64,000 nt of DNA, taken from NCBI RefSeq assembly GCF_964204645.1, contig NC_134025.1:14880001-14944000 (forward strand), given 5' to 3'. The position numbers were made by a program, and so were the translations under genes. Numbering within the stretch: position 1 is the first letter of the stretch; each line of letters starts with the position of its first letter. The stretch is from Tubulanus polymorphus. Its lineage: Eukaryota; Animalia; Nemertea. This document shows positions 1,794-64,000 of the stretch, one piece after another. The notes beneath the pieces were generated by a model that saw only the letters and a program-made list of their open reading frames with translations, did no database searches and had not been told where the DNA came from.

Positions 1794-2003
1794 GGGAAAA
1801 AGTGCAGATCTGCACCTCTCCGCATAAACGGTTCAATCAATTACATTAAATAATACATAAAGTTTCAGATTCAAAATGTCATCAGCAATTCATACATTGC
1901 CATTGGTTAATTTTAATATATCTTCACTAGAAAGATTTAGCCTGGATACTGTCATTCAGTAGATTGCGTCAATCACGAGAGGTGCGGATCTGCACTTTTA
2001 CCC
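1794..2003. mobile_element. 210-bp MITE with 27-bp TIRs and a 6-bp TSD (GATTAT)
   Basis: GGGAAAAAGTGCAGATCTGCACCTCTC ... GAGAGGTGCGGATCTGCACTTTTACCC, with GATTAT at 1788-1793 and 2004-2009. A partial second copy lies at 16301-16441. Confidence 0.85.
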
Positions 2004-3660: not shown

Positions 3661-4131
3661 CTCAAAGTCGACGACCAACCAAGGTCTAAAATTGCTAAAG
3701 ATTTTCTACAATAAAAACATGGAAAACACTCACCCATTACAACAAATCGTGAGACCGGAGAGCTTACCATCCACGTCGCACAAGAAACCAAAGAGATTGG
3801 TAATTACGAGGCCAACCCTCTGTTTCCCGTAAAACTACAATAACACTATATACAATCTGCCCTAGTGCCAACAATTATAGCTTTCTACTGCTCAAAACAA
3901 AACAAAAATCGGAGTTTACGCAACCACCGAAGGATGACCCTTAAATTACTATCATCGATAAAACTATAAACAAAAAGAGCCATGCCTTGACCGCAAGGTC
4001 TTCGATTAGACCTACACGCATATACACACACACAAACCATGCGTGTGCGGCCCGAAGGTAATACTATGGTTTCCGTATCTTAATGGAACACTAATCTTGT
4101 AATACTTCCAAAACAACGCCACGACTGTGTA

Positions 4132-5200: not shown

Positions 5201-5653
5201 TGAAGATCCAGGAAACTCACGTTGGGGTGAGACTTGAACCGCCCCTGGGATAATACTGTCGGAAACGTTGGGAGCCGACGCAGCTGACCGCACAGAAGAT
5301 TCAGAAGTCTCGGGAACCAAGTCTGAACCATCCAACAAGGTGCCACGAGGACCAAGACGCAGTTGCGCGCCTCCTCCACCCGCTCCAACACCCGATTTAT
5401 CAGGGGAACGGGGGGGATAAGCATAGGCATGAACGTTGTCACACTCTAGGGAGAACGCATCCATGGCCCATGCCCGGTTGTCTGGGAATGGACACACGGA
5501 TACTGGGCACCTGGTGTTGAACCTGGTAGCAAACAGGTCTAGATTGGGCCAACCTATCAGTGACCTGACTCGATTCGTTACCGGCTGAAACAGTGTCCAC
5601 TCTGTGGGAATCGGCTTGTCCCGACGCGACAACTGGTCGGCCACCACATTCAA
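5130..5653 (-). pseudogene. DIRS RNase H end plus DNA adenine methyltransferase-like domain
   Basis: NVVADQLSR, DLFATRFN, DAFSL..YAYPP, then PLINRVLERV..VLVAPCW..QTWFP across a frameshift. This matches the typical DIRS MT domain. Confidence 0.75.
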
Positions 5654-5695
5654 TTTTCCGGCTAGATGGGTTATCGAAAGCGAAATCCCCTGTGC

Positions 5696-7056
5696 CTAAA
5701 CCCATAGAAGGATCTCTGCGGTTAACCGCGTAAAAGTCCGAGACCTCGTTCCCCCTGATTCAAGAGATAGGCTTTGACCGTCGAGTTGTCCGTGGCCAAC
5801 CACACGTAGTGCCCGGACAGTCTCCTGTGGAAGAACTGCAATGCTTTCTGCACTGCTAACAACTCCAGATGGTTTATGTGCAAACCTCTCTCCCTCGACG
5901 TCAAGGCTCCCGACTTCCGAGAAGCCTCGAGATGGGCTCCCCATCCGTAAAAACTGGCGTCCGTGAAAAAATGAATCGGCGCCTTGAGTGGAGCTAAGGA
6001 CGTGCCTCTCAGAAGGTTGACAGTTAGAGTCCACCACATGAGATCCGCCACCAGGGCCGGTGGAGGCACTGGGAGAAGACCGTCCCAGCATTGATTTGAA
6101 TTCGACCAAGAACTTTTCCAAAACTGCTGTAGTGGACGACTGTGTAATCTGCCCAGCAGAACGACTAAGAATATCGAACTCATCTGTCCTAGGACCTGAG
6201 ACCAGTACCGCGCTGACTGGGGAATCCCCTGAGTCAAGCCGGATACCGCTTCTTTGAGTTTGTGTAACCTTGGTTCGGCTGGATAAACTAGACCGACTTC
6301 CAGGTCAAAGTACATCCCCAGATATACGAAACTCTGAGTGGGGACCAGATGCGACATCTCCAGATTCACCCTGAAACCCAACTGGTTTATTAAGGCCAAG
6401 GTTTTCTCCAACCCTTCCTGGCACTCCCTTGCCGAATCCGCCACCACCAACCAGTTGTCCAGGTAAACGAACAGACGTACCCCTTGTGACTGAAGGCGAC
6501 GCTGAACAGTTTTCACTAACTTTGTGAATAACCAGGGGGCTGCACTGAGCCCGAACGGAAGAGCGCAAAATTGGAAAGTTTTTCCTTGCCACTTCACCCT
6601 GAGGAATTTGCGGGACCTCAGGTGTACAGGGACCTGGAAGTAAGCATCCTTTAAATCTATCGAGGCAGCCCATTGAACGGGTCTCAACCCTTGAATTACC
6701 TCCTTGGACATGGTCATCTTGAACTTTGGACACTTGAGGAACTTGTTCAAGGACGATAGATCGATCACTGTCCTGAGACCCCCGTATGCCTTGGGTACCG
6801 TAAACAAACGGGAGTACCAACCGAGAGAGTTGGGGTCCTGAACTAATTCTAGGGCCTGTTTCTCCGACAGCTCTTCCACTGCCGGGAGGACATGGGACTC
6901 TTGCCCTTTCTTGAGTCTCATGTCCGGAGGGTTACGACACAGTCGTGGTTTCTTTTGAAACTCTAAGCGATACCCCGCAGAGACGATTCTGCTCTGCCAG
7001 GTGTCGCCAAAAACGTCGTACCAGTGGGAAGCGTAGTCCTGAAGACACGCCCCCAC
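5696..7056 (-). pseudogene. pol: DIRS reverse transcriptase-RNase H
   Basis: SIDLKDAYFQVP, LPFGLSAAP, YLDN (catalytic YLDD mutated), FTDASFYGWG, HINHLELLAV, TDN. Confidence 0.92.
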
Positions 7057-7077
7057 TAGCCGACCTTCAATGCTGCC

Positions 7078-8769
7078 CGACTTTGGGTTTCGGCAGAAAG
7101 GACTTCGCCTAAAGGGCTACGAATTCGGTCGCGTGGTTAAGTTTATCACGAGACCGAATTCGTAGCCCTTTAGTATTCTTAGAGTCGGACCCAGACCAGC
7201 CTGGTCTCCTAAACTGCGCCCTGGGTAGTTCCCCCGTCGAAGGGAGGCCTACTCGCCGAGTATTATTGTTGGATACATTCTTTTTCGGAATCCTGAAATT
7301 GGGCTTAGCCCTAGATTCCTCCATCTTTTGGACCTGCCCGAAGGCTTTCGAACCCCATCCCGAGAATAAGCGATCCGAGGTTCCTAATGGAGCCCTATAG
7401 AGACATGTCTTAATCGAATCGGGTAGTTAAGAATCTTTAAGGAAACTATGTATGCCTGACCGACAGGGCTAAATTTGCCTGAAGCCTAATAGCCAGGGGA
7501 ACCTGATGGCAGACAGCCCGGCTCATAGCCTGCAGCAGTCCCTCTAAAGTAACGATCCGATCTGCCATGTGATCCAAATCGGGATTATCCTGTGAAACCG
7601 AGTCCTTGACCGCCTCCAGCTCTCCATGCATCGCTATCAAACACGTATCCTGGAAGGACCCTATCTGAGCGACTCCCCTAAGGCCTGCATGGCATTAACT
7701 GCCTGTTTCGGGATATGGAAACTTAAGGGCTGAGAGGTTGGCAAGCCCAACTGATCTAAATCTGTGTCTATACGGCTGTGGCTTAAAAGACGCGGTGGGG
7801 TATTATAATAGACCGGCCTAAAACCCGGAATTTTCGGATCCTGGGGCGTGAAAAATCTTTTATGCGCAATTCCAAGGGTGGCCATGTCCAAGCCTCGGAA
7901 GCCCAGGCCTCACCCCACACAGCCGAGTCTAATGCTTCCTTCCATTTCGAAGCGTAATCGGGATGTGGAGCGAGAACCACCACATCCGGGTCGTCGGGGG
8001 CTTTAAAAATCTTCGCACAGGAGCCCCTTCGTTGGGTGACCCGAGGCTCAGGGACGGTTCCCCCATATTTTGAAAGAACGTCCGTAATGAGATAAGGCAT
8101 GTCACCCGTATTCCTCGCATCGTGCACATCAGATAGTGAAGGCGAGGAGCTCCTAGGCCTACGGCCTAAAACCGCAGCTGAACCCGACAAAAAGGTGCTC
8201 CGATTAGCCTGATCCTGAAAAGCCCCTTCTTTCTCGGAGGGCTCGTTTTCAAAATCGCTGACATTGCCTATCGACAATCGATCCCCGTGCTCCTCATCCC
8301 CTTCCGAGCGCGATTCGGGGTGGGGCTGTTTCCTGAGGGCGAGATTTTCCATGCTGGATTTGAGCTCTGAGTGTGTTCAACTCCGCTTTGAAAAATTCAC
8401 AAATCTGCGATAAATCCCTGTCCCCCGATGTTCCAGCGGACAGCGGCGGAGGTAGAGGCTGCGGAGTAGGATCCCTAGGCTGACCTTTTTGGCACACTGG
8501 GGACCTAACTGGTGATCGCGATCTAGACCGAGACCTACTACGTCCGTGTGCTCGAGACCAGTCTTTATAGGGACGATAATCCCATCAGGTTCTATGAACC
8601 CGACAGCTCGCAGAACCTGACCTACGTGACCGCCTACTAGTGCGACGTTGTCAGGAACGAGCCCTGTGGCCGTGGTGCCTCCCTCTGTACCTGCGGGACC
8701 TAAGGCCCTCGACAGAGGAATCCCCTGACCTCCATGACGAGGCATTCCCTGACGATGAGACGAAGTCAC
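7078..8769 (-). pseudogene. DIRS gag-like ORF1 fragments
   Basis: GC-richer, low-complexity, broken ORFs directly upstream of the RT. The call is positional only. Confidence 0.55.
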
Positions 8770-11700
8770 TTCTCAATGTTTATGTACCTACACGATTCCT
8801 TCGCTCCAGTCAATCAAAGCAACTAGTCCAGCCAATATCAAACCACAATTTTGACAAATTGTATTTATTAAATATTTAACCCCCCCTGGTGGCAACCCTT
8901 ACACTTACCATTGTCCACTTAATGATAACAGCACAACAAAACACGGCATGAATGGCACAAATATCCAACTGTTGTAGAGAAACGCAGGCTTCTGTTCAGT
9001 TCTCTTTGAGTCGTCGCTATCAACATTCGACACCTGCCTTCTCATAGATTGATAGGTTGCAAGCATCTAAAACATAGAATCGATGCATCTCATCTCATTA
9101 TAATATTCAACGTGCTGAAAGATTTTCGCCACATCGGCAATCTAAGTGACTAACAGCAAATGATACACACATACAGTGAAAGCTCGTTAAAACACCAGCT
9201 AGCACAGTGAAATGAAAGAGAGAATGAACTAGGGGTCCAGGGACACCATGCCCACTTGGGAAGTGGTTTCAAATGCTCAACAATCTAACAATTTCAATAT
9301 TCAACGCCCTCTGGTGGCCATATACAAAAACCAATGACCTTGAAATTTACCACAATCATAGAACATGTCAGCAGCTACGACTTGGTAATAGATTGTGATA
9401 ACCAAATGTGCCTCGTTACCAATTTAATATGGAAATACAAAGTTATTCTACTATCCAACGCCCCCTGGTGACCATATAGAATACATTTTGTCCTTAAAAC
9501 TCACCACAATCAGAGATGATGTCATGAGCTACAACTTTGCAATTGATTGTGGTAACAAAATATGCATTGGTACAAATATAATATAGAACTACTAAGATAT
9601 TGTATTATTGATATACCAGCATCTAATGTAAAATTTCTATTCTTTTCCAGCATGAAAAATGAAAAGGCACGGCCGATGTCTGCGTCTGAGAAACATAAAG
9701 AAACACGGAAAAGACGCATAGAGAAAGATCCAAACTTTCAAACAAGGGAAATATCGGGTCGGTCGGGCCCGAGAAACAGGGTTTTCTTTTGGTGTGGCCT
9801 AAGTGAGAGAAGTTTTCTCTTTGTCATCCGTGTGGGTCCCGTACCATACTCGCCTTTAAGTGACCCAGCAGTGCCTAGGTCACAAAAATTTTTCCTGTGG
9901 GATAAGATGTGTCTAACCTAGGTCTATGCCCGCTATGTAATCGCTCACTAAGGAGAACAAGTTGAAGATGTAAGTCCGACGATACAACTGATGAGCGTCA
10001 GTTGCTCAGCTGTCATCTTTAACCATGGGGTTAATAACGTGTGGGAATTCGGTGACACTGTCAAGGAGATATATTCCTTAGTAAACACCATACGGCGGAA
10101 GTATCCCCTTGTCCCGATTTTCCACCTTTCCAAAGGCCAAGTGCATGAGAGGCAAGCGTGAGACGGTTATCCCGATTGACCGTATCGATCTAGAGTCATA
10201 GATTTGTAGTCGGGACACCTTACTACAGTCAATACCCACTCTACAAAACCTGGCCTTTTGACTCTTTGCATCCCTGACTTAGTCCTGGTTCTGTGCAAGA
10301 ACTTTTTCTGTTGGCCCCTTACTTTTTCAGCGCTACTACAGAATCATCATACATCAGCTACCATTTGTATATAGACTGCAAGTCCCGACACGTGAGAAGG
10401 TATGGGGATGGCGGGGCCAACACCAGATATTGGAAAATGGCCAGCCATCTACCCTGCAGCGGTGAACCCTAGTCAACCTCGTGCTTCAGGAATGAATTCA
10501 GCGGGAGTGTAAATAATCATCTAGACACATAAGGACACTTTACTATGAGCATTGTACGTTATCTCTTGTGACCTTTTTGCGATGGAAACCCTACGCGTTG
10601 GACTTAATGTTATCGTGTTTGACTTATTGTATTGCGAAAGTTATTTTTGGTAGGCCTACTGAACGGTGTTTCAGTACACATTTTTAGGGAGGAGTGGTGT
10701 AACGGTGTGATTTCGACAGTATTATATCGTAATATATAGTGTATTTGTATTTGTAGTGATAAATGTTAACGATATGTGGCGTATCTATCGCTCTCTTGAA
10801 AAGAACCCATTGTCCTGGTGAGTTGTGTGTGATTCTATTGTCCCGGTTCAAGACTCTTTATTATCCCCTATAACAGCCGCGATTAACCCTGATATATCCA
10901 TAAGAATACCCCAAGACGACAATTGTTACACTCTTTCCAATGGTTGCATTGATTGACTAAATCCTGTCACATACCTATATAATCTATTGGCGCTATTGCA
11001 CTTTCGTACCCCTCCCAAATATTTTAATTTCTGCATATTTATTATCAGGGAGGTCTATGGATTCAGAATCAGTAACTTTCGACCGAAAAAACTTACATTT
11101 TCTATGTCAAATTTTTGATACTTTGGGCCCTAAATTGCATGTAAAATCACCTTTACGCGCAAGGATCGACGCCATATTGGATGCCAATCAAAGTTTCTAA
11201 CCCTTCACTGAATTGTCATGACTTTGAAGTTGCAAAAATCTTTGTTTTCAAACATAACCATTTCTTAAAATCACATGTATGTTTGCATTATTTTCATGTG
11301 TAGCTATTGATTTAAAGATGTTCTGATAAAGAAAAGTTACATGCCAAAAAAAGAAATTTTGTCAATTCAATTCAATTAAATTAACTGTGACTGTTCAGAC
11401 GTTTTTAAGTGGTAATTAGTTCGCCAAAATGGCCGATCCGTTGATTTGAATTGAAGAAATCGGCCCTATATCATCGGAATTTTGAAATGAAAAAAAAATT
11501 TTTTTTTTGGTCAGAAGTAATTAGGGTTTTCTGTTATATCACAGAAAACCCTATTGATATCCGCGTGATTATTATTATTATTATTTTCTTCCACACTATT
11601 TTTACTAAAAAAACAAAGGCTTTCTTACCTTGACGCTGTTGTCGATACAATCCGTCTGATATCATTCAGCTCACTTCGATCTACAAATACCTCGTGCGTA

Positions 11701-13246
11701 TTTCGAAGAATCATCGTTACAAAAGCACTGTCGGGCCGTAAACATCGAAAATTGAGCCCCATTCAAAGAGCCGACATGTTTTTCTAAGTCCTCTTTCCGA
11801 AATCTACTGCACGTTTCTTGTCACATCGATTATCAATTCAAGAATAAATTAACAAATTTATTACCCCACATTCTGTCGCGGTTTTTAAAAACTAATTTTA
11901 ACAATAGCCCATTTTCCTCATCAAATCGTATTACCGATATACAGGAAATTTACTACTTTAGATTTTAAAAGCACTGTCGAGCCGTAAACATCGACGAATC
12001 GACGTGTGTCACTACATCGTCGTTCCGGGGATCAGCTGCAATTTTCCCCTCATCTTTGGAATCAAATCGAGTACAAATTAATTTATTACTACCAGTGATT
12101 TGGCTGCGGGCGTCATGCAGTTAGTTTAGCAATACCTATTTTTCTTTATCAAATTAAGCGTGTATTTACTAAGATAAATCATAAGTGTACCGGGGAGTCG
12201 TAGGCCTAAACGAAACCATCCTCGCTTGCCAGGGGTCCGGTATCACACTCCCGAACTCGCTTCCACCAGCCCCCTGGCCTCACGAAGCGTGATTTCATTA
12301 CTAGCGCTGTTGCGCATGACGTCATATATCGATTTGCGAAATACTTCCTTGTTCAGTAAAACGTTCGCTGATTGGTCCATTTAATGGGAAAACCAATAGA
12401 ATCGTTTGTTACAAGCGCTGTGATTGGTACGACCGGATTCTGGTCGGCTAGTAACGACTCCAACGACTCGTGAGGTCAAGGGGTTCGGCGAACAGCTTTA
12501 GTGTAGTGGGTTCGAATCCCTTGACGGGTGAAGATGAAACGAAACACGCCGAAGAGATATAGCGGAGAAAAGCTGTTATGTCGACGAGGTATCAAAATAA
12601 AATAATATATTACTTTATTCGGCCACGGGCTTCTACCTCTATATCAATACCATCAATACTCTATATTTCCTACAGTACATACCGATCATTGTCAAATGCA
12701 CAAGTTATTTACTAAATAAAAGTATATAACACAATCCTTTCCGTATGCTGGACTCACACTTGACATTCGGAGTAAGCGTTCGCTGTGGGGGAAAGGGATC
12801 GTTCGCTGTGTCGCTTGATTGAAGTGTTTATCGAGTTTGACGCGGCTTTAGGCCTACCGGTACTGAGCTTTACTGTCTCAAACAAACACAGAATAATTGT
12901 TGCGTTTATTAACGGACTCATTGGATTGAACTTCAAAACAAAATTTACGATATTTAGGTGGGTTGTTATTCAATAGGCCTACCTACGACCAATCTGTCCG
13001 GATGTTAGGCCTACGCATATACATAGGCCTACATAGCCTAGTAGCCCCTACTAGGTTAAGCGTTCGCTGTGGGGGAAAGGAGATCGTTCGCTGTGTCGCT
13101 TGAAGTGTTTATCGAGTTTTATGCGACCTTAAGGCTTTAGTATGGTGGCTGATAAGGGCCATGCGTAAAAAAAAACACGTATATGCAAATGAGGGCGACA
13201 TTATGACAAAACGACAAAACTAAAATAACGCGACAAAACAATAATT

Positions 13247-14370
13247 TTGGTTTTATCGCCAGCGACAATTCATTATTTTGGTTTTATCGCCTGCGACAAT
13301 TCATTATTTTGGTTTTATTGCCCGCAACAATTCATTAGTTTGGTTTTGTCGCCCGCGACAATTCAATATTTTGGTTTTGTCGCCCGCGACAATTCATTAT
13401 TTTGGTTTTATCGCCCGCGACATTTCATTATTTTGGTTTTGTCGACGCGACAATTCATTATTTTTGTTTTATCGCCCGCGACAATTTTCTTTTTTTTGTC
13501 GCGGTATTATCGCCAGCGACATTTCAATATTTTGGTTTTATCGCCTGCGACAATTCAATATTTTGGTTTTGGCGCCCGCGACAATTCATTATTTTGGTTT
13601 TATCGCCCGCGACATTTCATTATTTTGGTTTTGTCGACGCGACAATTTATTATTTTGGTTTTATCGCCCGCGACAATTTTTTTTTTTTGTCGCGGTTTTA
13701 TTGCCTGCGACATTTCAATATTTTGGTTTTATCGCCTGCGACAATTCAATATTTTGGTTTTATCACATGCGACAATTCAATATTTTGGTTTTATCGCCCG
13801 CGACAATTCATTATTTTGGTTTTATCGCCCGCAACAATTCATTAGTTTGGTTTTGTCGCCCGCGACAATTCAATATTTTGGTTATATCGCCTGCGACAAT
13901 TCAATATTTTGGTTTTATCGCCCCCGACAATTCATTATTTTGGTTTTATCGCCCGCGACAATTCAACATTTTGGTTTTGTCGCCCGCGACAATTCATTAT
14001 TTTGGTTTTATCGCCCGCGACAATTCATTATTTTGGTTTTATCGCCCGCGACAATTCATTATTTTGGTTTTGTCGCACGCGACAATTCATTATTTTAGTT
14101 TTATCGCCCGCGACAATTTTTTTTTTGTCGCGGTGTTTTCGCCTGGACACTTCAATATTTTGGTTTTATCGCCCGCGACAATTTTTTTTTTGTTGCGGTT
14201 TTTCCACCTGCGAAACTTCAATATTTTGGTTTTATCGCCTGCGACAATTCCTTATTTTGGTTTTATCGCCCGAAACAATTCATTAGTTTGGTTTCGTCGC
14301 CCGCGACAATTCAATATTTTGGTTTTGTCGCCCGCGACAATTCAAGATCTTGGTTTTTTCGCCCGCAGCT
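13247..14370. repeat. Minisatellite with a 31-bp unit TTTTGGTTTTATCGCCCGCGACAATTCA(T/A)TA
   Basis: More than 30 tandem copies are directly visible, and they explain the repetitive ORFs in three frames. Confidence 0.95.
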
Positions 14371-41864: not shown

Positions 41865-44800
41865 TCAGAGGTTGCTAGCACTTGACCACATGATTTGGAC
41901 TCTCAACGAGTAACATAATCGTCGAGATATTTTGTCGCCTGATTCCGCGATGATTCCACTTCTCCTTTGGACTACGTTTTCCGGAGGTGTTTGCGGGCGT
42001 GTGTCGTTGTCAGACGGTGGAGTGTCGCCGATGTCTGCGGGCGCATTGTCGACAGGAACCGGTTCAGAAGTTTTCATTAGATGCTCGCCTGTTTCTGCGG
42101 TAACGCGTTCCATTTTGACTTATGAAGTATGATCGTGGAAATCCAGAGTGATGTTCTACAATCGCTGGTTGCCATGATTTGTCGGATGGGGCTCGTGTAC
42201 GTACTACATCTCCGGGTTGTAACTCTGGTAGTTCTTTCGAACCTTGGTCATACGATTTGCTCTGGCGGTCTCTCAGAGACTGTAGTGGCTGCTTCGTCCC
42301 AACTTGGGTGTATGGATACAGCAAATCTGGAACAGTGGGTAGTGTTCTGCATAGTTGTCTACTCATTAGTAGCTGGCTAGGCGACTGTGTCATTCCTGAT
42401 AGCGACGACCGATACTGTAGCGAAGCAATGTACGGATCAGAATCCTGGTCTTCGGTTTTCTTGAGCATTTCCTTCACCGTTTTAACAGCCCTCTCGCTAA
42501 ACCCATTCGATTGAGGAAACTGTGGACTCAAGGTGTTGACTTGTAATCCCCATTGATCTGCAAAGCGTAGAAATTCTCTGCTCGAGGACGGCATGTTATC
42601 GCATATCAATCTTTCGGGAATGCCATGGCGGGCAAATATGGATTTCATGCAATTAATTACCTCACGGGAATTCTTATTCCTCGTCAGGCGCAATAGTTCG
42701 GGGTACTTCGAGTAGCAGTCAGCTACAACAAGGTAGTTGCGACCCTTGAATTCGAGTATGTCCGCGCCAAGACATTGCCATGGGCGATCTGGTATCGGGA
42801 ACGATCGGAGTGTTCCAGGCACACGCCGCATTTGGACACCAGGCGATCAATGTCGCCATTGATTCCGGGCCAATACAGGACTTGCCTGGCACGAGCTTTG
42901 ATCTTCTCTGATCCGAGATGTCCTTAATGTAGCAATTCTAGCATTTGTGATCGCAAAGTAGCCGGAATGACGATGCGATTACCTTTCATTACGTCGACAA
43001 CATGGAGCACGTCACGAACGTCCCAAAGGTCTATTATGTTGGGCGATACGCTTGACTGTCGTTCTGGTCATCCATGCTTAATGGTGCTGACCAGTGTGAC
43101 TATTGACTCGTCCTGTAACGATTCTTTGCGTATCCGATCAAGCTTGTTCGTACTGACCGGTAAGTTCTCCATGAGAACATGAACCATGATTTCAATGTCC
43201 ATGTTCAGCCCAGTCTGATCGTTAATCGGGGCCCGAGACAGCGTGTCAGCAAGATACATGAGCTTCCCAGGCACATGTTTCACATCTTGCGTGTATCTCT
43301 GAAGATTGACCATCATCCTCTGAAGCCTCGGTGATGCTTTGGCGATAGGCTTTCTTGTTATGACAACAAGCGGTTTGTGGTCAGTCTCGACTTCGACGCG
43401 TTTACCATATATGTAGTGGTGAACCTTTTGCACGCGAAGCAAATAGCAAGCATTTCGCGTTCGATCTGGCCATAGTTCTGTTCTGCTGAAGTCAGCGTGC
43501 GTAATGCGTAGGCTACTTGGTGGTCGTCTTGCATGAGACAAGCACCAAGACCTGTTGGGGAGGCGTCGGCCTGTATCTTGACTTGTTTCTTCCCGTCGTA
43601 GAACTTCAGCACAGGCTGCAATGTGAGAACTTCTCTGATTTTATTCCCATTGCCACAATGTGTCAGCTTTGAGCAGGGATCGCAGCGGCCTAGTGATATC
43701 CGAGTGCCGCGGTATGTATGGTGACAGACATAAGAGCCTCTGAAGCGACTTCACGTCTTCTGGTGTGGGCATGTTGACGATAGCTTTGATCTTCGCTGGG
43801 TCAGGTCGGAGCCCATCAGAGGTAACAGTATTGCCCACATAGGAAACCTCTGGTACATGTATTTTGAACTGGAGCTTTGGCTTGTTCAATCTGGCACCCC
43901 TTTCACGTGTGCGCTGCATGACCATGTTGATTATTTCATCATGATCGCGATCGTAATCTCCTACTATGATCATGTCGTCCGTTATAACACCCAGTCAGTC
44001 GGACGATCCACCTTCGCGATAATGCCGGACGCTTCAAATTCAGTCAAGGTAGCTTTCAGCTTATTTCGACGAGCTAACGGAAAGTTCCTCGGAGACTGGA
44101 TGACGGGTGTGACGTTCGCATCGATTTATATGTCATAAGGCTTCTCGAACGCGCCGATGCCAGTGAACAATTTTACATATTTAGGGTTTTCTGACTTTCG
44201 TCGAAAACCCTCTTGAAATTCTGTTGATTATTATTATTATTATATATTTTCCGCCGATTTCGTCAAATAAAATTCATCTTCATTCAGATTCGGCAACTGA
44301 CAGCTTCGAAACGAAATGTATAAATTGATACTGTAATAACGGTCTCTCTGAACCAACAGATTGTCTGAATGTACTTTCCATCCTATTTGAAACTTAAAAT
44401 TACTTATTAGGTTACTGTAAATAAAGAATTGAATTGAATTGTTAGACAACAAGCACCGGCGAAATAACAGTTTGTGACGTCATTTAGTAAGTAAATAAAG
44501 GAGGGCTCCGAGAATTTCCAAATCACGGGGACTATACTGGGGTTAGACCATTCAACCAAAAAGAGGATTGCTCCGATAATATCCAAATCATCTCATTTTA
44601 TTTTTTCCATCGAATACCCGGTAATTAATTTTTCCTTTCGATCACATGCATCCAGAAAACCCGTTATCGCTGCTTTGCAGCTATATTGTTCTACTTGAGT
44701 TTCCTTCGTTAACAGTTGACTTTGTGAAGAGGCGACTGACAAAGCCTAAATCTTCACAAGCTTCGTGTCCGAGTATAGGTGATGCTGCCTGTTTGGTTAC

Positions 44801-45070
44801 GAATAATTTCAAAGTCTTCTCTGAGCCGCTTGGTGTGACACATTTTAGCTCAGTGACTCCCACAGGCTTTATCTTGTTGTTGCTGAAGTCAGTTAGACGT
44901 AAATTAGTACTCAGCAGTTCATGATTTCTTCTGAGTTTGCGAAACACCGATTCTGGGATTACGTTAGCTTGCGCACCCGTGTCCAAACGAAACGTTATGC
45001 TCTCGTCTTCAATTTTGACCTTTGTGTGCCACTTGTCTAACTTATCGACGAAGAGAGCACCGATGAAAAA
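41865..45070 (-). pseudogene. pol: Gypsy pol (protease, partial RT, RNase H, integrase), disrupted
   Basis: FRLDTGAQANVI; DDMII..PDPAKIKAI; QADAS..GLGACL..YGQIERE; ETDHKPL; ADTLSRA; FARHGIPE.LICDN..PQSNG.SERAVKTVK. Confidence 0.9.
44181..44687 (+). mobile_element. ~505-bp Helentron-type (HINE) element inserted in Gypsy pol
   Basis: Near-identical to 59635-60142, with subTIRs GGGTTTTCTG/CAGAAAACCC and a 3' stem-loop GCTGCTTTGCAGC. Confidence 0.85.
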
Positions 45071-45258
<188 letters not shown>

Positions 45259-45461
45259 CTGGTATGCGAGTCAGTAATTGGGAATAAGTTGTTTCAAGCC
45301 AAAGGTCGAAGGGTCGAAAAGTAAATTCTCTCACACTCGAATTTACTTTTCGACCCTTCAACCTTTAACTCGAAACAACTTATTCCCAATTACTCTAATA
45401 ATATTTATATATATGAATATGAATAACTTCTAAAATCAATTTAAAAAAATATGTTATTAAA

Positions 45462-45803
45462 ATTGAGAGTAAACAAATTTACAGTGAATTCTTAGATAGA
45501 ATAAAAGATACTACAAATGTCAAATCTGTAGATTATAAATTTAAGGAGTTAACCGAATTAACAATTCATAAGAAATATTCAATTACAAATATTAAAACAG
45601 TTACTAATAAATATGGAGATAAATTAATGATTCACTTAGAATATGAAGGATTAAAAGGAAATAAATATAAATTCAGAACATATTTGCCAGATAGATTTCA
45701 TAGATTATCTAGTGAAGATCTAGAAGAATTATGTTCAGGTGATTTCTATTTCATATACAAAGGTAAGGATGAAAAAGGCCACTATGATATAGATTTCGAA
45801 TAA
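45462..45803 (+). pseudogene. Small conserved terminal protein (start codon apparently ATG>ATT); paralog of 50828..51154
   Basis: Open frame of 113 codons: ..TNKYGDKLMIHL..FRTYLPDRFHRLSSEDLEEL..YKGKDEKGHYDIDFE. Confidence 0.7.
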
Positions 45804-47624
45804 TACAAAATCAATTTTAATAAAGAATTTGATATTAAAATGGAAGCAAATAAGAAGTTCTACTGTTCAACATGCAAAATCAATATAGATAAATCTCAAA
45901 AAGCAAGGCATGATAAAACTAAATCTCACTTAGAGAAAAAATTGAAATTAGAATATAAAGATGATATATTAGAAACTAAATTAGATGAATTAAAGAATGA
46001 AAAAGAAATATATAAATGTGATACATGTAATCAATCATTCAGTAACAAAAGATATTATATAGAACATTTAAAATCTAAAAGTCATATTAGAAATATGAAT
46101 AATGATATTTTTAGGTGAAGATTATTTTGATAAAGATAATGATAAAAAACAGAAGACAATTAAAAGAATAAAGAATAAATTAAACAATAAAAGACCATAT
46201 ATGGAAGACGTTAGAAATTATATTAATTCATTAGATAATAAAAAAGAAATAGAGATAACTCAAGCATTTAAAAGTGATGTTGGACCAGCTGCTATCGAGT
46301 TTAAATTTCATAAAGGTAAAACATTAGAAGAAAATAAAAAACATTTAGAAAATATGAAAAATATTATTAAAATAATTACTGAGGTAGAATACCCTAAAAT
46401 TAGCATATCAGTTAAAGTTAAATTCATAAAATCTGAAGATAAACCAATATCTAATATAAATTCCCATTCACAACATATTATATCTAAACAACATATAGAT
46501 GATAGATTAGATGAATGTTATAATGAAGTAAAAAAATAAAATAGAAGAGAAATTTTTTGAAGGATCAGGTTTAATATTCGATGAAATAATATTTATGACT
46601 TTACATGTTTATAACACAAAATATAATAAATTAACTGAATCAAACCAATAGATGAAAATAATTTATCATATTATAAAGAACCAGATATTGAAGCGTCGAG
46701 TTATATTAAACTACCATTTAAAACTAATGCTGTTATCAATGTTCACAATTTTGATGATAAATGTTTTCTATGGACAATTATAAGTTGTTTACACCCAGTT
46801 GAAGATTATAAACAACATAGTTTTAGATTAACACATTATAAACCATTTGAAAATAATTATAAGATAGATAATTATCCTGTTAGAATTAAAAATATCCCAA
46901 AAATAGAAAAAGATAATAATCTAAAAATAAATGTATTTGATTTAATCAAATTACCAAAAACAAAAGGTAACAAGGTGCCAGTGGGCACAGTGAGATTCAG
47001 CTTTGAAAGTAAATAGTCATGTGCTTGACAAATTGTCATGGGATGATGACATGTTTCTCATAAAAAGAAGAGTGGTTGACCCTCCACTGGACCAAGTAAC
47101 CAAAAATTGATTGAGGGAACTTATTTGGACCAGTGCCTGCTATGATGTATGAATAAACACTCAATTTCTATTGTTTGCACGAATTATGATTCTGGTTTCA
47201 TACTATCATTTTGGCCTTTGCCAAGCTGTCAGTTACAACGCATGAAACTGGGGACCAAGCAGCAGCAACAGCAGTAGTATATTTTTCTTATTAACTTCTT
47301 TATTGCAACCCTCAGAGGTAAATGTGCTACAGTCGTGGGATTCTTTTTCGTCTGTAGTTTCTGTATATTCATCATCTGAAAAAAATAATGGCAAAAAAAG
47401 TTAACTCATGTGAATAGTAACACCTTTTCTGGTTATCATTGGTGGTATACCTTGCTATTGCTTTAAAGGTTTAAACTCAATATACTAAGTTACGTAGAAC
47501 TTGAATGGAGCCATTAATTTCAATTAGTAGCACATACTTTATTGGGTTTATGGTATGCAAGCAACTGCATTAAGGTAGGACCAAAAGTGTTTACCATTTC
47601 AGTTGCAACACAGGAATACGTGTA

Positions 47625-48960: not shown

Positions 48961-50827
48961 TTATTGGAATATTTATTAAGCCCAAGCGCAAAAACGTTAA
49001 CTCCAGCAGTAAGGTATTGTTTTTTTAATGAACTGAATAAATTGCGTCTGTGGTTGTACAACTACGTATGTATCAATGCCTGTATAAACATCAATGACTA
49101 TAGTGCTGTACTACTGTACTCAGCACAGCACGTATATATGGTCGCTTCGACCGAATGCATTCAAAGAAAGGTGAAGCTTCACTTAACTAAGGCCGGAACG
49201 CGCTTGTGTAATTCATGGACCGAATAATACGATAAATATACATAATCGTGGATTCAAGACCACTGTCTGGATATATGGGCAAGTAATATCCTAACATCAC
49301 CTACAAGTACCGGCCGAGCTAGCGAAAAAAAATTGACGTACGTTAAGGCCTTAGTGCCGCCGGACGGGAACTGACAAGACACATCATCAGTGAAATTGCC
49401 AGTTAAATACGCATTGACAACTCTTATTCTCGACAAAAAACCCGATTCAACGCTTTATTGACATCTAGTCTAAACATAATTTACACATCAAATCCTGTCA
49501 TTTTCACAAAAAGAATGTAAAATGCCGGTACCTACCTCTAGACTCGCGTCACAGTAAGTCAATGGCGGCGCGCCGTAGTCACGTATCCATTCGCAATATT
49601 CAGTATTTGTCTACTAGCGCATGGAAACTATATTTTCCCGTAAAATATTATGAAAGTTTTAAGGGACGATCGAATGCATCTACTTAGAAAATATTTGCAG
49701 TTTCGGACTCATGCGATAAGACGTTGGCCTACTGGTACGAGGATCTTTTTACGGCGCGTATATCTACATGTATAAATGTCATTCAGATGGGCGTGCTGCG
49801 GTTCGCCTCCACGCGAAAATGACGTCACATGTCACTTCAGAAATGCCCAAAATCGTATGGAAATTAGCCCCCAGGGCCCAAATTAGATACACCAGATATC
49901 CATACCACCAGAAATTATGACCCTCCAACTGTAACAATCCTGTTGACATAACACTCATAGCGTCAGGTGCTACAGATTAAGCGGAGAAGTTGTGCAACAC
50001 TAATCAGTCGGCACCATTTAGTAAACTAATAGATTCAGCTGCGCTGAATCTAATAATATTAAACATTATACATTAAAACCTTTATACCTATCAAAAGATT
50101 ATGATTCAAATGGTGTTATAGATATATTATATTATGAGAATCATTATATGTGAATAAAGCGTATTGATTTATTTTTCAAATCAGAAAATGATTTTGATAA
50201 TAAGATATATCTATGTAGAAAATGTTAACATAAATTCAGAACTGAAAGAAAATCTTAAATGAAAGAAATTAAATTCTAATGAAAATGATATAATTGATTA
50301 TTCAGATCCTCTAATAACAAATACTATTAAAAAGATTCATCAAAGTGCTGCAGCTTTTGGATTATATATAAAATCTGATTATCCAGAACTAATTGAAAGT
50401 GAATATTATCATTATAGAAATGAAAATGTTATCAATCATTTTTGTGACTTATTAATTGAATATGAAATGAAATTTAATGAAAAGTTAAACAAAAATATAG
50501 AAATTATAATGACAGAAGAAGATAAAGAAGAATTTGAGTTTGCTGATAAATGTTTTTATTGTGAAAAGATATTTAATCTAAAAGATAAAAAAGTTAGAGA
50601 TCATAATCATTTGAATGGTAAATTTAGAGGTGCAGCACATGAGAATTGTAACTTTTAAGCTAAGAAAATCAATTTTGTTCCAGTTATATTTCATAATTTA
50701 TCAGGGTATGATGCTCATTTATTTATCAAACAGCTATGTTATAGTAATTGGAAAAGTGGGCTTTCAGACCAGAGGACGAGAGGACGAGACACCTCTCATC
50801 ACCACAAGTAATTTTTTTTTCTTATAA

Positions 50828-51154
50828 ATGGGAGATAGAAAAGCATTCTTAGCAACAATAAATAACAGAATAAAACCAGCAAAAAAACAATTTGAAATAA
50901 AAAAGTTAGTTGATGTTACAAAAGAAATTGAACATAAAATGTTGAAATTAGAAAAGATAAAAACTAAATATGGAGAGAAAGTATCAGCGAATTTAAGTTA
51001 CTGTAATGTTAGTACATCGCGAGAATTTAAAGTATTTTTACCTGATAAATGGGTTTCATTGAGTACAGAGGAATTAAAAGATTTAGAAGGATTTAAAATA
51101 ATCCATCATGGAAAAAATGAAGATGGTCATCATGATTTAGAAATTGTTGATTAA
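50828..51154 (+). CDS. Small terminal protein, paralog of 45462-45803 (function unknown, possibly ssDNA-binding)
   Basis: KTKYGEKV..FKVFLPDKW..EELKDL..HGKNEDGHHDLEI aligns with the element A ORF. Confidence 0.7.
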   Translation: MGDRKAFLATINNRIKPAKKQFEIKKLVDVTKEIEHKMLKLEKIKTKYGEKVSANLSYCNVSTSREFKVFLPDKWVSLSTEELKDLEGFKIIHHGKNEDGHHDLEIVD

Positions 51155-52241: not shown

Positions 52242-52540
52242 CAACTAGAATTCAACTAGAATGTAACTAGAATTCAACTAGATTAACAAGCTAGTTGAAA
52301 TATTGTTGTTTTTATTTATTTCTTGTTGAATTTTATTTGATTTTTGTTTCAACTACTAACAACTAGAATTCAACTAGAATGTAACTCGAATTCAACTAGA
52401 TTAACAAGCTAGTTGAAATATTGTTGTTTTTGTTTATTTCTTGTTGAATTTTATTCAATTTTTGTTTCAACTACCAATAACTAGAATTCAACTAGAATGT
52501 AACTAAAAATATACTAGATTAACAAGCTAGTTGAATTTGA
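52242..52540. repeat. 2.5 copies of a 118-bp palindrome-containing unit
   Basis: CAACTAGAATGTAACT starts at 52253, 52371 and 52489. Confidence 0.9.
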
Positions 52541-53151
52541 ATAAATTCATATTTAAATGGGTGTCGTAATCGAAATAGTAATTTTGATCTTTTATTATTT
52601 TTCAATTTATCCATATGTTCATTATGTAAATCATGCGGAATAATATTATTTTCCTCAAGTGCATTTTTCATCGATTTCCAATCTTTATTGTAGAATAATA
52701 CTAAAAATCTAATGTTTTCTCTAAAATCTTTAACAATTGAATTATATATTTGATTTAAAACCCATGTTGTTATCCCAAAATGTCTCCCAGAGAAAGCTAA
52801 ATAACATAACACACTTTCTCTAACTTTTGAATCATGTAAATTTGCACAATCATCTATAATGAATAATGTATTTGAACCTTTATAAATATCAATTGCTATT
52901 TTGTTTTAGGATCTAATATAATATATATATATAATAATATAATATAATAATATAATAAATTTATTATTTCTAGTAATATTTCTATCATAAGTTTGATTAA
53001 ATTCATATGTTGGACAAAATAATACTATACTATCAAAATAGTTTTTATAAATAGTTTCTAATAAATTTAATATAAAATAAGTTTTTCCACAATTTGTTAC
53101 ACCAGAAATTAACATATTATGAGGTTCAAATATTAATAATTCCTTATTCAT
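52519..53151 (-). pseudogene. A32/FtsK-like genome-packaging ATPase (frameshifted)
   Basis: Walker A ISGVTNCGKT; Walker B FIIDDCA (~52845-52865); SGRH..ITTWVLNQ. Confidence 0.9.
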
Positions 53152-54286
53152 TTATATATTTTTAATTTTACTTGATAATATCCATTCATTAAATTTATCT
53201 GGCCATCCAACCCATTTTACTAAAGAATATTTTTTTCTTTTAATAGTTTTTGTTTTTAATACTTTTTCAATTTTATATTCTTGTTCTAGATTTTCGGTAG
53301 TTAAACTTAATTCTTCTTCATAAAAATACCAATCAACTTCTTCACCATTTAAATCTCCTAATTTATAGACATATGGTTTTGTTGTTATTACCTTTTTTAT
53401 TTTATATATTTCTCTCGTAAAATTACGATCGTATCCTTTATCAAATATCTTTTTATACTTAGAAATTCTAACATTTTGACCAACTTTAAATTTAGGTTCA
53501 CCAAAATCATCTACAAGAAATGCTCCGTATAAATTATTCCAAACAATTTCAGCATTTTCAGGTTTTTTAGCATCAATAGATTTCATTCCAATAGAAGAAT
53601 GATAAGAATTATTATAACCTTCTATCAATTTTGGTAAAACATCAAACATCAATCCATTTAAAAGTATTATTTGCTGTAAAATATTTCCACATTCTTGTTC
53701 TTAATGTTCTATTAAATCGTTCAACAACTGATGCTTTTTCATCCGATTTTGTTGAAAAATATTTAATATTATGATTATCTAAGAGTTCATGAACAAGTGA
53801 ATTACCAAATTCTTTTCCATCATCAAATTGTATTTTTTCTGGTTTTAGTTTATCATCCGAAAGAGATTTTCTTAAAACATTTGATGTTTGTACAGCATCT
53901 TTTCTGCAAAGTGGGAAGCTCCATACATAACGACTAAAAATATCAATCATATTCAATATCCACCAATAATCATCATTATCTTTCTTAATATTTTTCATAT
54001 CAATTAAATCTCCTTGCCACTGTTGATCTACATAACTTACCATAGTTTTACGAGTTTTATATTTTCTAACAATTTTTTTATGTGTTGTATATGTTGGTTG
54101 TTCTAACATAAATTCATTTATATCTTTATATTTAACTAAATTTTGTGGGATTATCTTATCTAATTTATCTTTTTTTACTTGACGCCATATATTTTTGGTA
54201 GAAGAATAAGCAACCGAACTCTCAGGGTTGTAATATAAATTTCTAAAATATTGTTCTTTAGTATTAGGAGTTTTTTTACCACCCAT
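53152..54286 (-). pseudogene. Retroviral-type (rve) integrase with a C-terminal chromodomain, one frameshift
   Basis: WQGDLIDM, IDIFSRY, QFDDGKEF, VVERFNRTLR, YNNSYHSSIGM, FKVGQNVRI, YKIEKVL..LVKWVGWPDKFNEWI. Confidence 0.93.
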
Positions 54287-54316: not shown

Positions 54317-55564
54317 CTAATATTGAATACTATCTAATTGAGAATTTATAATATTTAATTGCGCGTCAGATATAATATAAATGTGCATTTTGAAATTTTT
54401 GATTCCTTTCTTCTTTTTCATGAATAATTGTATCCCATCTTTAGTATTCTGCAGCTTTTTCACAGAACCATGTAATGAATTATCCTCTGTTGTTCTAAAA
54501 TCTAACCATAATGCATATTTATTACCGGTATAATAATCAATTTGATTAATATTACAATTTTCAGATGATTTTACTTTTTCATTCATAAAATGTTTTCTAA
54601 TTTCTGGCCACTGATCTATCATTCTCATTCCCTGACAAAATATTTTATTTGCTATTCCTTCGATAGTTATTTCTACTTTTGTTATTTCAGGATTATAATA
54701 ATCATCAACATTTATTACGCCATTAGATTATGTTGCAATCGTAAAAAATATTAATATACCTTTAATAGATCTTCTTGGGAAGTTAATATTCTCATTAATA
54801 ATTTCATCAGTTGCATTAATAGTTACAGTTTTAAATTTATCAATATAATCATATAATAATGAAAATCCTTGATTGTATTGAGTTTGAATTATCCTTGAAA
54901 TATTTTCATCAGTTACTGTATCATATTCTAAACATATATTCGATAATTTATAACCCATATCTTTAATTATACTTGATATTAAAATTTCATTAACAGGAGC
55001 AAATGTTATTTCGAATATAACATCTTCTTGTATTGCATGTTTATATAAAGGTGCATTATTATTTATCAATTCAAAATCTAATGGAATTTTATATTTGCTT
55101 CCATAAATCTTTTTGATCAAATTATCTGCGGTACGAGTTACTATTGCGTCATTCGCTCCTGATCTTAATTTATTTTGGTTTTCTGATTGGATGCCTTGAA
55201 ATATCATATTATTTCTATTTTCTTTAGTTAACCATAAATCTTTATAATGCATAAATAAATTATAATCATCTAATGAGAAAACTGTTTCTGGTCCAATCTT
55301 TACAGTTAATTTTTTAATCAAATATCTTCCAACATTATCAACAACATAATTATTATTATTACCAGCTACATTTATATCAGCTGATAAATAAATACTATTT
55401 GGAACATAAAAACTATTTTGTGTTAATCTGGGGATTCTAACATATAAAGTTTCGGCGGGATTAATATTAGAAGGATTATGAGTAATTATATGATGAGATC
55501 TTTCTGCTTTAATAGCGTTAGATATTCTAGAATTCCTAGAAGGATTTATATAACTCCCACTCAT
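54317..55564 (-). pseudogene. Probable major capsid protein (double jelly-roll), frameshifted
   Basis: About 415 codons when joined, beta-rich, located beside the integrase and ATPase. Motifs HNPSNINP.ETLYVRIP.L, LSNICLEYD and LWLDFR..DN.LHG. The fold is inferred. Confidence 0.7.
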
Positions 55565-59634: not shown

Positions 59635-60142
59635 TTAGGGTATTCTGACTTTCGTCGAAAACCCTCTTGAAATTCTGCTGATTATCATTATTATATATTT
59701 TCCGCCGATTTCGTCAAATAAAATTCATCTTCATTCAGATTCGGCAACTGACAGCTTCGAAACGAAATGTATAAATTGATACTGTAATAACGGTCTCTCT
59801 GAACCAACAGATTGTCTGAATGTACTTTCCATCCTATTTGAAACTTAAAATTACTTATTAGGTTACTGTAAATAAAGAATTGAATTGAATTGTTAGACAA
59901 CAAGCACCGACGAAATAACAGTTTGTGACGTCATTTAGTAAGTAAATAAAGGAGGGGCCCGAGAATTTCCAAATCACGGGGGACTATACTGGGGTTAGAC
60001 CATTCAACCAAAAAGAGGATTGCTCTGATAATATCCAAATCATCTCATTTTCTTTTTTCCATCGAATACCCGGTAATTATTAATTTTTCCTTTCGATCAC
60101 ATGCATCCAGAAAACCCGTTATCGCTGCTTTGCAGCTATATT
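59635..60142 (+). mobile_element. ~505-bp Helentron-type (HINE) element inserted in the Maverick
   Basis: Near-identical to 44181-44687. It interrupts a minus-strand ORF starting near 60395. Confidence 0.88.
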
Positions 60143-61189: not shown

Positions 61190-62491
61190 ATGGATGAGAA
61201 GATACCATGTGAAATTTGGGGTGAACTTCTAAGAAAATGTAGTATGGCTCGACATATCAAAAAACATGATAAAAATTATAAACCCCCTAAAATAAACTGC
61301 CCAAATTGTAATAAATTATTCTCAAGAAATTATGTCAAAAAACATCCAGAGAAGTGTAAAATTAATGACACAACGGTTAATGTTAATAGTAACGAAAGTA
61401 ATAGTAATTCTGTTGAAGTTGAATCTGAAATTATTTGAAAAGACATTTCTTATTCTATGATAAGGATAATATAAAAGATTATTTCTGTGAGCCTTGTCGA
61501 ATAAAATATAGACATGAAAATATAGAAGATTGGGAGAATCATCAATTTCGTAAAGCACATATAGATAAAATTGGAAACTGAATTCAATGAAAGAAAGGAT
61601 AAAATATTAGAAAAAATTAAATATGAGAAAACGTTGCCAGATAATGAAGAAACACTTAAAAAGTTGGATAAACAATATAATGAATTAGTTAGAAAAACAT
61701 ATTATTGTAAATATTGTAAATTGATTATTACAACAAGTAATTCAAATCTACATAATAGAACAATAAAACATAAAGAAAACGTAAGAAAATACCAAGAGCT
61801 TAATGAAGATCTATTACCAAGAAATGATAGAAAAAAATGCCCACAATGTATTTATGAGTACTTAAGACAAGAAGGTTCTGTGATATTTTGTAATGAATGT
61901 GGATGGCAAAGGAATTTATGGGGTGATGAAAAAACTAGAGATATTCTTATAGAACCAAAATTAAAATATCTAGATGAAATTTTTAAGATATTTTCTATGG
62001 AAGATCATACACCAGAATATAAGCAATGGCTTGAAAAAATGAAAATGATAGAAAACAAAAATGGTGAAATAACTAAAAAAGATATAATAAAAACAATTAT
62101 TCCGTCAACATTTAACACACAAGAAAAGAAAATGTATTTATATCTATTATTTAACGATTATTATAAAAAACCTAAATTAACAGAAGAAGATACGGAATAT
62201 ATAAAAGAAACATTCAAAAAAATATTAAGATATTATGTGGATAATAGAATAACTGATTCAATTAATTATGAATTCTTTTTAAATAAGATTGTAAATTTTT
62301 TAGACATCGATATTATAATTCCATTTGATGAATTAACAAACAAAAAGAAACAAAGAGAGCGAGATGAAATGTGGTACAATATAGAACTTTATTTAAATGA
62401 GAAAAATGAAATGGAAGAACGTAAACAATTAAATGAAAATGAAGAAACCAGTAGTGATTTCCAGTATGATGATCTTGATTTTATGTTTTAA
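61190..62491 (+). pseudogene. Zinc-finger plus VLTF3 (poxvirus A2-like) late transcription factor-like gene
   Basis: Zinc-finger motifs, a CPQC..CNECG ribbon and a C-terminal SINYEFFLNKI..KKQRERDEMWYNI. ORFs 61190..61438 and 61571..62491 are probably one broken gene. Confidence 0.55.
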
Positions 62492-64000
62492 TTAACCATA
62501 AGGTAATGTTTTTATTCCATCACCCAAAATATATCTTATATCATCGAAATGATTTAAACTAGTTTTTTCAACTTCATTAATGTACATTTCGTGATCTTCT
62601 GATCTTAAACAATTCATTTAATGTTTCATTACAATTGAGATATATAAACACTTTATATAATCTTGAAATTCTATATGTTTATCAACCACATGTTTTGTTA
62701 TTCCTTTTAACTTTTTAGCTGCATGATCTTTTGTTCTATAACTATACGTTTTACTTCTTATCCCAACAAATTCAATCATTTCATCAATTCATCTTTAAAC
62801 TTACCAGGAATCTTTTTATTATCATTGCTAAATAGTTCATGATCTTTGGGATAATTGCTAAAATCAAAATGATGTTTTAATGTTTTTAAGTCTTTTGTTA
62901 TGTCATTTGTCTTGATTTTTAGTATGTACGCGTCAGTATTTTTTTGGATTAATGGGAACCCAGAATTGAATGTTCCATCATCTGTTGATAAATCATAAAC
63001 ATAGTCAGTTGGGTTATATATTTCAAATAAATCTCTGACATCTTCTGTTAATTCTTTTTCTACATGCCTTAAGTTAAAACAATTTGGTTTAGATTTAATT
63101 AATTCTATATTCATATTAAATCCTAATGAATTACATAATATATACAATCCTGATATAGCAACATTTCCTTTTTGCGCAAATGTTATTACTCGAGATCTCG
63201 TATATTTTTTCTGTCCATCTGCTGCGTAGAATCCAATGAAGAACCATTTGCTAAAATTATATTTGGCATTTAATACATAATCTGGCACTATCTTTTCTTT
63301 TGTTGAAGTATTACTTTTCACTATTGCATGAATATAGAATTCGTCATTATATTTTATAGCAAAATCTTTAGGATTATTCACAAGTATTCTATAAACGGCT
63401 GATGATTTCATAACATCCATGATTCTAAATGTTTTATTTGAATTAACTTCTTCACAGTATTTCTTTATTCTTTTTAATAATTTCAAATCTTGATTGCATA
63501 AATACCAACAATATTTATTACCCCAAACATAATTATACACACCTGCTGAACCATCGCCCATGAAAAATCCTTTGATAAAATATTCTTTTTCTTCTAATGT
63601 TTCAGGTTCTATATTATAAATATTATCAATTATTTCATCAAATGACATATGATTCATTCTTTGGAAAAATCGTTTATGTAATAATTCATCCCCAATTTTC
63701 AGTTGGTTTTATTTCATCGCCATTTCGTTTAATTAAACTATGATCTTCTGTAACATCAACAAATCCTAATTTAGTTCTAACTCTATAAATCTTTTTATTT
63801 GTTTTATGCCTAATAATATTCTTTCCATCCATTTCTTGTCCAAACATCCATTAATCCATTTATTTGTATTAATTCTTTTTCAACATATGAAATATAACGT
63901 TCATTTTGTTTTGGAATTATTTCTGAAATTCTTCTTATCAATATTTTATCATTACATTTTAATAATATTGGGGTGTCAGCTGTTACAGAATCAAAATATA
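62492..64000 (-). pseudogene. polB: Maverick protein-primed DNA polymerase B, C-terminal part, intein-interrupted
   Basis: YFD|intein|TDAY..FDFSNYPKDH.LFS..NKKIPGKFKDE..EFVGIRSKTY..KKLKGI..LRS..H..FDD.RYI..DGIKTLPYG*. Confidence 0.92.
62938..63989 (-). mobile_element. Intein with a LAGLIDADG homing endonuclease
   Basis: Block A SVTADTPILL; block B VDVTEDHSL; endonuclease motifs FIKGFFMGDG and FFIGFYAADG; block F YVYDLST; block G IQKN, followed by Thr+1. Confidence 0.93.

Follow-up and report, generated by a model that had tools for sequence, protein, structure and literature searches.

A decayed copy of a putatively homing intein in motif C of a Maverick protein-primed DNA polymerase

What kind of sequence splits the catalytic motif of a viral-type DNA polymerase, and how could it have come to be there? 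In the 64,000-nucleotide stretch of DNA analysed here (the window), the YxDTD motif of a protein-primed PolB (pPolB) is interrupted on the minus strand by an insert of 1052 bp (62938..63989). An earlier note, made from the letters of the window, had read this insert as a homing-endonuclease intein in the polymerase of a Maverick element. We consider it probable that the insert is a decayed intein of this kind in motif C of a Maverick pPolB, with intact relatives that are predicted to splice and have likely spread through the cutting of empty copies. The likely host is an animal.

The insert and the polymerase it splits

Read on the minus strand, the N-extein ends with the YFD of polymerase motif C (63998-63990), its remainder lying outside the window. 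The insert follows directly with SVTADTPILL (from 63989), continues through VDVTEDHSL, FIKGFFMGDG, FFIGFYAADG and YVYDLST, and closes with GFPLIQKN, whose Asn is encoded at 62940-62938; the polymerase then resumes with TDAY from 62937. All motifs quoted in the earlier note were found on this strand, and the splitting of the YxDTD motif by 1052 bp, which it had described, is confirmed as YFD, insert and TDAY in direct succession.

The length of the insert is no multiple of three, and its reading is spread over three frames, with two frameshifts near 63815-63820 and near 63694-63698. The first frame (63816..63989, minus strand) comprises the first part of the N-terminal splicing region and intein block A with Ser1 (TIGR01445, E 0.02, below cut-off), and the second (63698..63814, minus strand) contains block B, VTEDH (TIGR01445, E 0.0066, also below cut-off). 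The third (62938..63693, minus strand) holds a LAGLIDADG domain with its two motifs, GFFMGDG and GFYAADG, followed by block F (YDL) and block G (GFPLIQKN). The window has every residue expected of a class 1 intein: Ser1, the TxxH of block B, the Asp of block F, the last Asn and Thr +1. Blocks B and F of the VTEDH and VYDL types recur in all six pPolB relatives compared, and each of the seven pPolB inteins compared, at 42-77% identity, retains both LAGLIDADG motifs together with the acidic residue.

Profile and structure comparisons point the same way. The endonuclease part of the window insert scored 29.2 bits against Pfam LAGLIDADG_3, above the cut-off of 22.5; among the Hint models, scores above cut-off were reached only in two relatives, P0002 and P0024. 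A predicted model of the endonuclease part, built from a 7-sequence alignment (pLDDT 65.6), matched the PI-SceI/VMA1 intein, I-DmoI and the TliVMA intein (E 2e-5 to 4e-4). Translated with X at the breaks, the insert gives 351 residues, which align along their whole length, at 60% identity, with the intein of the intact protein-primed PolB P0001, a protein of 1693 aa (BLAST against a set of 126 sequences, E 5e-151). Judged by its sequence, the insert is a real PolB-c intein with a two-motif LAGLIDADG endonuclease, placed between the Asp and Thr of motif C.

The window copy itself is dead. A continuous open frame with the host protein, which is present in six clusters of intact relatives, is absent here, and because it is broken the window intein can neither splice nor home. 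The GC content of the intein (0.26) is like that of the C-extein (0.25), and so gives no sign of a recent arrival.

Since the window includes no more than 11 bases of N-extein, the identity of the polymerase rests on the C-extein (62492..62937, minus strand), which begins with Thr +1. It is 75% identical to the intein-less polymerase P0295 and is placed among protein-primed PolBs in the polymerase tree, and its reading frame shifts near 62785 and later runs into an in-frame stop codon (62620-62618).

Mis-assembly or a chance insertion might also have joined part of a giant-virus PolB to a Maverick and so placed an intein at this locus. Most matches of the insert are indeed giant-virus-type PolB inteins, and no single listed contig piece spans the whole stretch, but the insert lies exactly at YxD/TD, the sequence downstream of it is that of a pPolB, and reads cover the stretch completely in three runs. 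Moreover, the nearest inteins all reside in intact protein-primed PolBs, and the six intact clusters largely refute such a junction, which we regard as very improbable.

The Maverick element, its copies and its host

The genes of the element sit in a block of 24% GC that starts at about 50800, left of the polymerase. An A32-like packaging ATPase in two pieces (52519..53151, minus strand; Pox_A32 E 1e-6 and 1e-4) is followed by a retroviral-type integrase with a chromodomain in two frames (53152..54286, minus strand; rve E 4e-11, Chromo E 1e-4) and by a probable major capsid protein gene, again in two pieces (54317..55564, minus strand; Capsid_N E 0.0076, below cut-off). A zinc-finger protein gene of the same element occupies 61565..62491 on the plus strand (zf-U1 E 3e-7). 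By this gene content, in which a protein-primed PolB is combined with a retroviral-type integrase and an A32-like ATPase, the element is a Maverick/Polinton. The flanks of the insert might have grouped with polymerases from outside the Mavericks, a prospect that the earlier note had raised; the C-extein grouped instead with protein-primed PolBs, and the integrase and ATPase are its neighbours.

The division of integrase, ATPase and capsid gene into two pieces each indicates that the entire element is decayed. A repeat of about 510 bp within the Maverick (59635..60142) is 98% identical to a copy outside it, 15 kb away at 44181-44687, and so ties the element to the flanking DNA. A pattern scan of viral_contigs with the single capsid protein returned no relative, and an exact look-up of ten window ORFs in the protein collection found none of them present.

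Several further features of this region were recorded. An A/T-rich motif ending in TAAATG lies upstream of element genes (minus strand, 55563, 59519, 58832, 59273 and 52209; plus strand, 50807 and 61167), with its ATG forming the start of a listed ORF in four cases; we take it to resemble the poxvirus late promoter. The plus strand carries another Maverick, truncated (45273-47016 and 50030-50760), which has a left-end hairpin with 56-bp arms, a small ORF and the N-terminal part of a pPolB, which is interrupted by about 3 kb of other DNA with a 31-bp tandem array. Two small ORFs (45423-45803 and 50828-51154), one near the end of each Maverick, appear paralogous by eye and matched no family.

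Sequencing reads indicate that the element is one of many. Four runs of one study match part of the stretch. At 85% likeness, two of these runs and a raw WGS run from another study with the same species label covered 30/30 bins; the contig runs among those used may include the window's own source. A further run, possibly of RNA, gave no coverage, and no RNA run was listed among those matching the stretch; neither result bears on expression. In the raw WGS run (1,934 Mb read), the intein was covered at a mean depth of about 200, as against about 270 for the next gene and 320 for the C-extein. A length difference from the window was seen at the break near 63698 in 146 of 202 reads and at 62785 in 165 of 250, so that these breaks are not common to most copies. 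We infer that the window's Maverick family is present in many copies, a large part of which carry the intein; the extra depth over the C-extein may represent empty copies or more distant families.

The DNA around the element bears on its host. A Pfam search of 72 flanking ORFs gave no host gene and matched nothing but reverse transcriptase, RNase H, integrase and the remnant of a DDE transposase; Rfam gave no match. The flank has 39% GC without CpG depletion and many tandem repeats, including a 31-bp array of 36 copies (13229-14366) that produces long spurious ORFs. Decayed retroelements with reverse transcriptase and RNase H lie at 4132-8772, in overlapping frames, and at 42064-45364, with an integrase; we take the former to be like DIRS elements and the latter like Gypsy elements. 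Other fragments presumably resemble a CR1-group LINE, an L1-type ORF1 and Tigger-type elements of invertebrates. From these flanking repeats we consider an animal host likely.

The same intein and mechanism in a non-animal host, which might be a protist, a symbiont or some other eukaryote rich in repeats, would accord with the lack of a host gene in the window and with the origin of the closest polymerases from short contigs (4.6-13 kb, some from JGI). Protist nuclear scaffolds with intein-bearing viral-like polymerases are also known, as the available text of PMC10710043 describes, and such a host would add to the algal and labyrinthulid cases. We nevertheless regard a non-animal host as unlikely, given a flank with two RT-RNaseH retroelements, an integrase, a DDE transposase remnant and fragments with a presumed likeness to invertebrate-type repeats. 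The polymerase relatives that carry names are, in addition, all from insects (4/95), in another sub-clade than that of the window, and adintovirus virion proteins are reported as animal-restricted in the portion of PMC8502044 available to us, which would count here if the window capsid were of that kind.

Relatives of the intein and its passage between polymerase classes

Six clusters of intact protein-primed PolBs (P0001, P0002, P0024, P0033, P0037 and P0038) have an in-frame intein at the same site. The Intein_splicing profile (PF14890) was above cut-off in P0002 and P0024 and below it in the other four, and the DNA_pol_B_2 profile was passed by P0001, P0024 and P0033. P0024, P0037 and P0038 also possess an Endonuclease_7 domain; the intein, complete in itself, is distinct from this domain and lies in motif C. 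Fragmentary relatives comprise P0155 and P0287, in which a pPolB C-extein is present, five pieces of intein whose closest match is P0002 or P0143, and the metagenomic locus L003. The last (10-4197 of its contig) is a pPolB with the same intein, read as two ORFs split inside the endonuclease domain. Motif C lacks its Tyr in the intein-plus polymerases P0037 and P0038, where it reads SSD/TDS and ASD/TDS.

In the intact relatives, an intein that appears complete, with Ser1, TxxH, the block F Asp, a terminal Asn and Thr +1, stands in frame between the motif C Asp and Thr. By established intein chemistry, an acyl shift at Ser1, transfer to Thr +1 and cyclisation of the Asn would release the intein and rejoin the motif. 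As splicing would restore the catalytic motif, the polymerase would depend on it.

Wider searches returned mainly inteins of RNA-primed PolBs (rPolBs). Of 137 new proteins from a sensitive search, 111 were rPolB-like, two pPolB-like and 24 neither. A search with the intein alignment yielded two loci in viral_contigs and 61 in metagenome_contigs, with exteins of rPolB type in 42 of these 63, of pPolB type in one (L003) and of neither type in 20. The same alignment gave no locus in prokaryote genomes, phages and plasmids gave no intein match, pattern scans of viral_contigs with single proteins (the intein, P0001, P0037 and P0024) found no relative, and P0024 had no match among PDB sequences. The intein is rare in pPolBs, since none of the 94 other pPolBs found through the P0001 C-extein contains one.

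In four trees, the pPolB inteins and the window intein fell on one side of a single branch, with support of 99 (126 rows), 99 (47 rows), 100/100 (33 rows) and 100 (31 rows). The last three trees used the closest non-redundant rows (40 of the 87 non-redundant, then 26 and 17), with near-copies of P0024 and P0037 removed. This group is related to the PolB-c inteins of giant viruses, the mimivirus intein being 41% identical to that of the window. A comparison with giant-virus inteins, which the earlier note had proposed, accordingly places the pPolB inteins in a group of their own near the giant-virus PolB-c inteins, in trees built without archaeal inteins. PolB-c inteins as a whole are separated from motif-B inteins by a branch of 100, and when rooted on the latter the pPolB inteins are nested among rPolB inteins. 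In trees without archaeal inteins, the AU test did not reject monophyly of the rPolB inteins (p 0.08), so that, in spite of the nested position, a gain from giant-virus-type polymerases is only likely.

The earlier note had also seen a link to mimivirus. The site and the Ser start are indeed shared; the Lys-Asn end is ruled out as a special link, being the commonest end in the group (79/126 inteins).

Other members of the intein set deserve mention. P0003, on a 47-kb contig, is a Pol delta-like polymerase with a motif-C intein and a C-terminal C4 zinc finger (PF14260, below cut-off); quick trees put its intein as sister to the pPolB inteins (96, 94 and 91), but the careful tree did not recover this position. 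Two inteins of type II topoisomerases, P0018 and P0035, fall among the PolB-c inteins, which suggests, on tree placement, a jump to a non-allelic site.

When pPolB and rPolB hosts are compared, the inteins are 39-49% identical and the exteins 19-30%. Inteins far more alike than the proteins around them indicate that the element crossed between the two classes, and the exchange that the earlier note had supposed is thereby supported. The polymerase P0033 repeats this pattern within the pPolBs: its intein is 42-49% identical to those of other pPolBs and its extein 20-30%, which argues for a second jump. P0033 has a VSR-like segment, which we take to assign it to a different, VSR-type pPolB, going also by the description in Jeong et al.

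In the five HNH-type polymerases, intein identity tracks extein identity (45-50 vs 37-52%, 66 vs 67-70% and 77 vs 80-85%), which argues for long residence and mostly vertical inheritance. In a polymerase tree of 52 rows, from which P0033 was excluded and in which the 94 empty matches were reduced to 41, all eight intein-plus rows fell in one 20-row sub-clade, mixed with 12 empty ones. Intein state changed six times on this tree, near the shuffled mean of 7.6, and these changes do not separate gain from loss. We favour a history in which one old gain from a giant-virus-type RNA-primed PolB would have been followed by long residence in one sub-lineage of protein-primed PolBs, with repeated losses there, and later by at least one jump into another polymerase class.

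Intein-plus and empty copies, and known systems

If the intein homes, its two-motif LAGLIDADG domain would cut the empty site, and repair off an intein-plus copy would transfer the intein together with some flank. As Mavericks are present in many copies, donor and target can share one nucleus. The earlier note had suggested a survey of Maverick copies for both states, and both were found in the family of P0024. Of the 136 members of this cluster, 15 are listed, their contigs ranging from 57 kb to 1.0 Mb in length; two short ones were dropped and 13 span the site. At the protein level, seven of these 13 are intein-plus and six empty.

Over the first ~1,030 residues (-1041 to -11), the divergence between plus and empty copies is 1.2-1.8%. 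The difference rises to 41.7% at -10..-1 and 40% at +1..+10, and falls to 16.9% at +11..+30, 8.9% at +31..+60 and about 4% further out. All ten fixed differences between the two kinds lie within -7..+44. The empty sites are of three kinds, YFDTDA, YTDCDS and YGDTDA, which differ mutually by 24% at -10..-1, and the flank HYMD/TDSFVLSV, common to intein-plus copies of three families (P0024's own and two others, with 55-67% N-extein identity to P0024), is missing from the family's own empty copies. The motif YTDCDS also forms motif C of the empty polymerases P0144 and P0146.

A patch of divergence confined to the insertion site is as expected from endonuclease-driven gene conversion. The alignments are compatible both with a gain accompanied by co-conversion and with a loss in which resistant or divergent donors served for repair; either way the break falls at the insertion site. 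Co-conversion of flanking residues upon intein invasion has been described in haloarchaeal MCM (PMC10643990, in the part available). The varied empty sites suggest escape alleles. The earlier note's proposal of homing among Maverick copies thus gains sequence support in this related family; for the window copy, which is broken, it does not stand.

The same data can be read without homing. A real intein that splices in intact copies and no longer homes could have been gained once, long ago, and inherited vertically, with empty copies arising by recombination with intein-less Maverick families. Intein and extein identities that match among HNH-type polymerases would agree with this, as would three kinds of empty site that look as if they came from different donors. 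Such a history would however leave unexplained why both LAGLIDADG motifs and their acidic residue are kept in every pPolB intein compared, why the patch of recombination has the insertion site at its centre, and how the intein crossed into the VSR-type polymerase P0033, and we judge it improbable. We retain as the more likely reading an intein that is predicted to splice and has likely homed. Its bolder form, in which giant-virus-derived inteins in animal genomes are self-splicing and homing and still convert dispersed Maverick copies, with empty copies escaping by changes in the motif flank, we hold only tentatively, leaning somewhat against it.

An intein in an integrated Maverick would be out of the ordinary. 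Metazoan genomes are stated to lack inteins in the accessible text of PMC8529194, and the eukaryotic hosts in the survey of PMC5784728, as far as its available text goes, are fungal nuclear, plastid and giant-virus genomes, the viral ones coming from giant-virus families. No earlier description of a protein-primed PolB or a Maverick with an intein came to light; subscription papers, Repbase, InBase or supplements might mention one. 'Intein' and 'LAGLIDADG' are absent from the main text of Jeong et al., 'intein' from that of Starrett et al., and 'Polinton' and 'Maverick' from that of PMC10710043, and in one supplement file each of PMC8502044 and PMC10748475 neither 'intein' nor intein motifs gave a match.

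If our reading is right, an intein lineage in integrated Mavericks would be an exception to the absence of inteins from metazoans, by way of an endogenous virus; its carrier is still a viral-type gene and no cellular animal gene. It would also mean that giant viruses and Mavericks have exchanged genetic material at a motif of six residues, in polymerase classes with hardly any alignable sequence elsewhere. In a family with many plus and empty copies, the homing cycle of invasion, resistance and decay could be counted within genomes.

Several known systems share parts of this picture. PI-SceI (the VMA1 intein) and archaeal LAGLIDADG inteins have the same two-motif LAGLIDADG fold, and their life cycle combines splicing with homing. 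Unlike the present intein, to which they are 14-18% identical, they reside in another host protein, and they home between alleles, whereas here homing would take place between dispersed copies of an element. HNH and VSR nuclease domains are likewise inserted in Polinton pPolBs (Jeong et al. 2023, 10.1101/2023.08.22.554363) and have been suggested to derive from intein invasions (Krupovic et al. 2024, PMC11161782), both according to the available portions of these papers; in contrast to the intein, they are fixed and without described splicing motifs. Inteins in animal-infecting viruses are already known from the iridoviruses of insects (PMC549080, PMC5784728, each in its available part).

Closer in setting are the viral-like DNA polymerases with inteins on nuclear scaffolds of Klebsormidium, Tetrabaena and a labyrinthulid, again from the available text of PMC10710043. 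These, too, are intein-bearing viral polymerase genes in eukaryotic nuclear DNA, but their hosts are algae and a protist, whereas the carrier here integrates itself, exists in many copies and likely resides in an animal. Closest in sequence and site is the mimivirus PolB intein, a PolB-c allele at site III with the insertion point YGD/TDS, as given in the part of Ogata et al. (2005, PMC549080) available to us. It has the YxD/TD site, Ser1, the Asn end preceded by Lys, Thr +1, TxxH, the LAGLIDADG domain and a length of 351 residues in common with the window intein. It differs in its carrier, an RNA-primed PolB of a giant virus rather than the protein-primed PolB of an integrating Maverick, with exteins 19-30% alike, and it falls outside the group that the pPolB inteins form.
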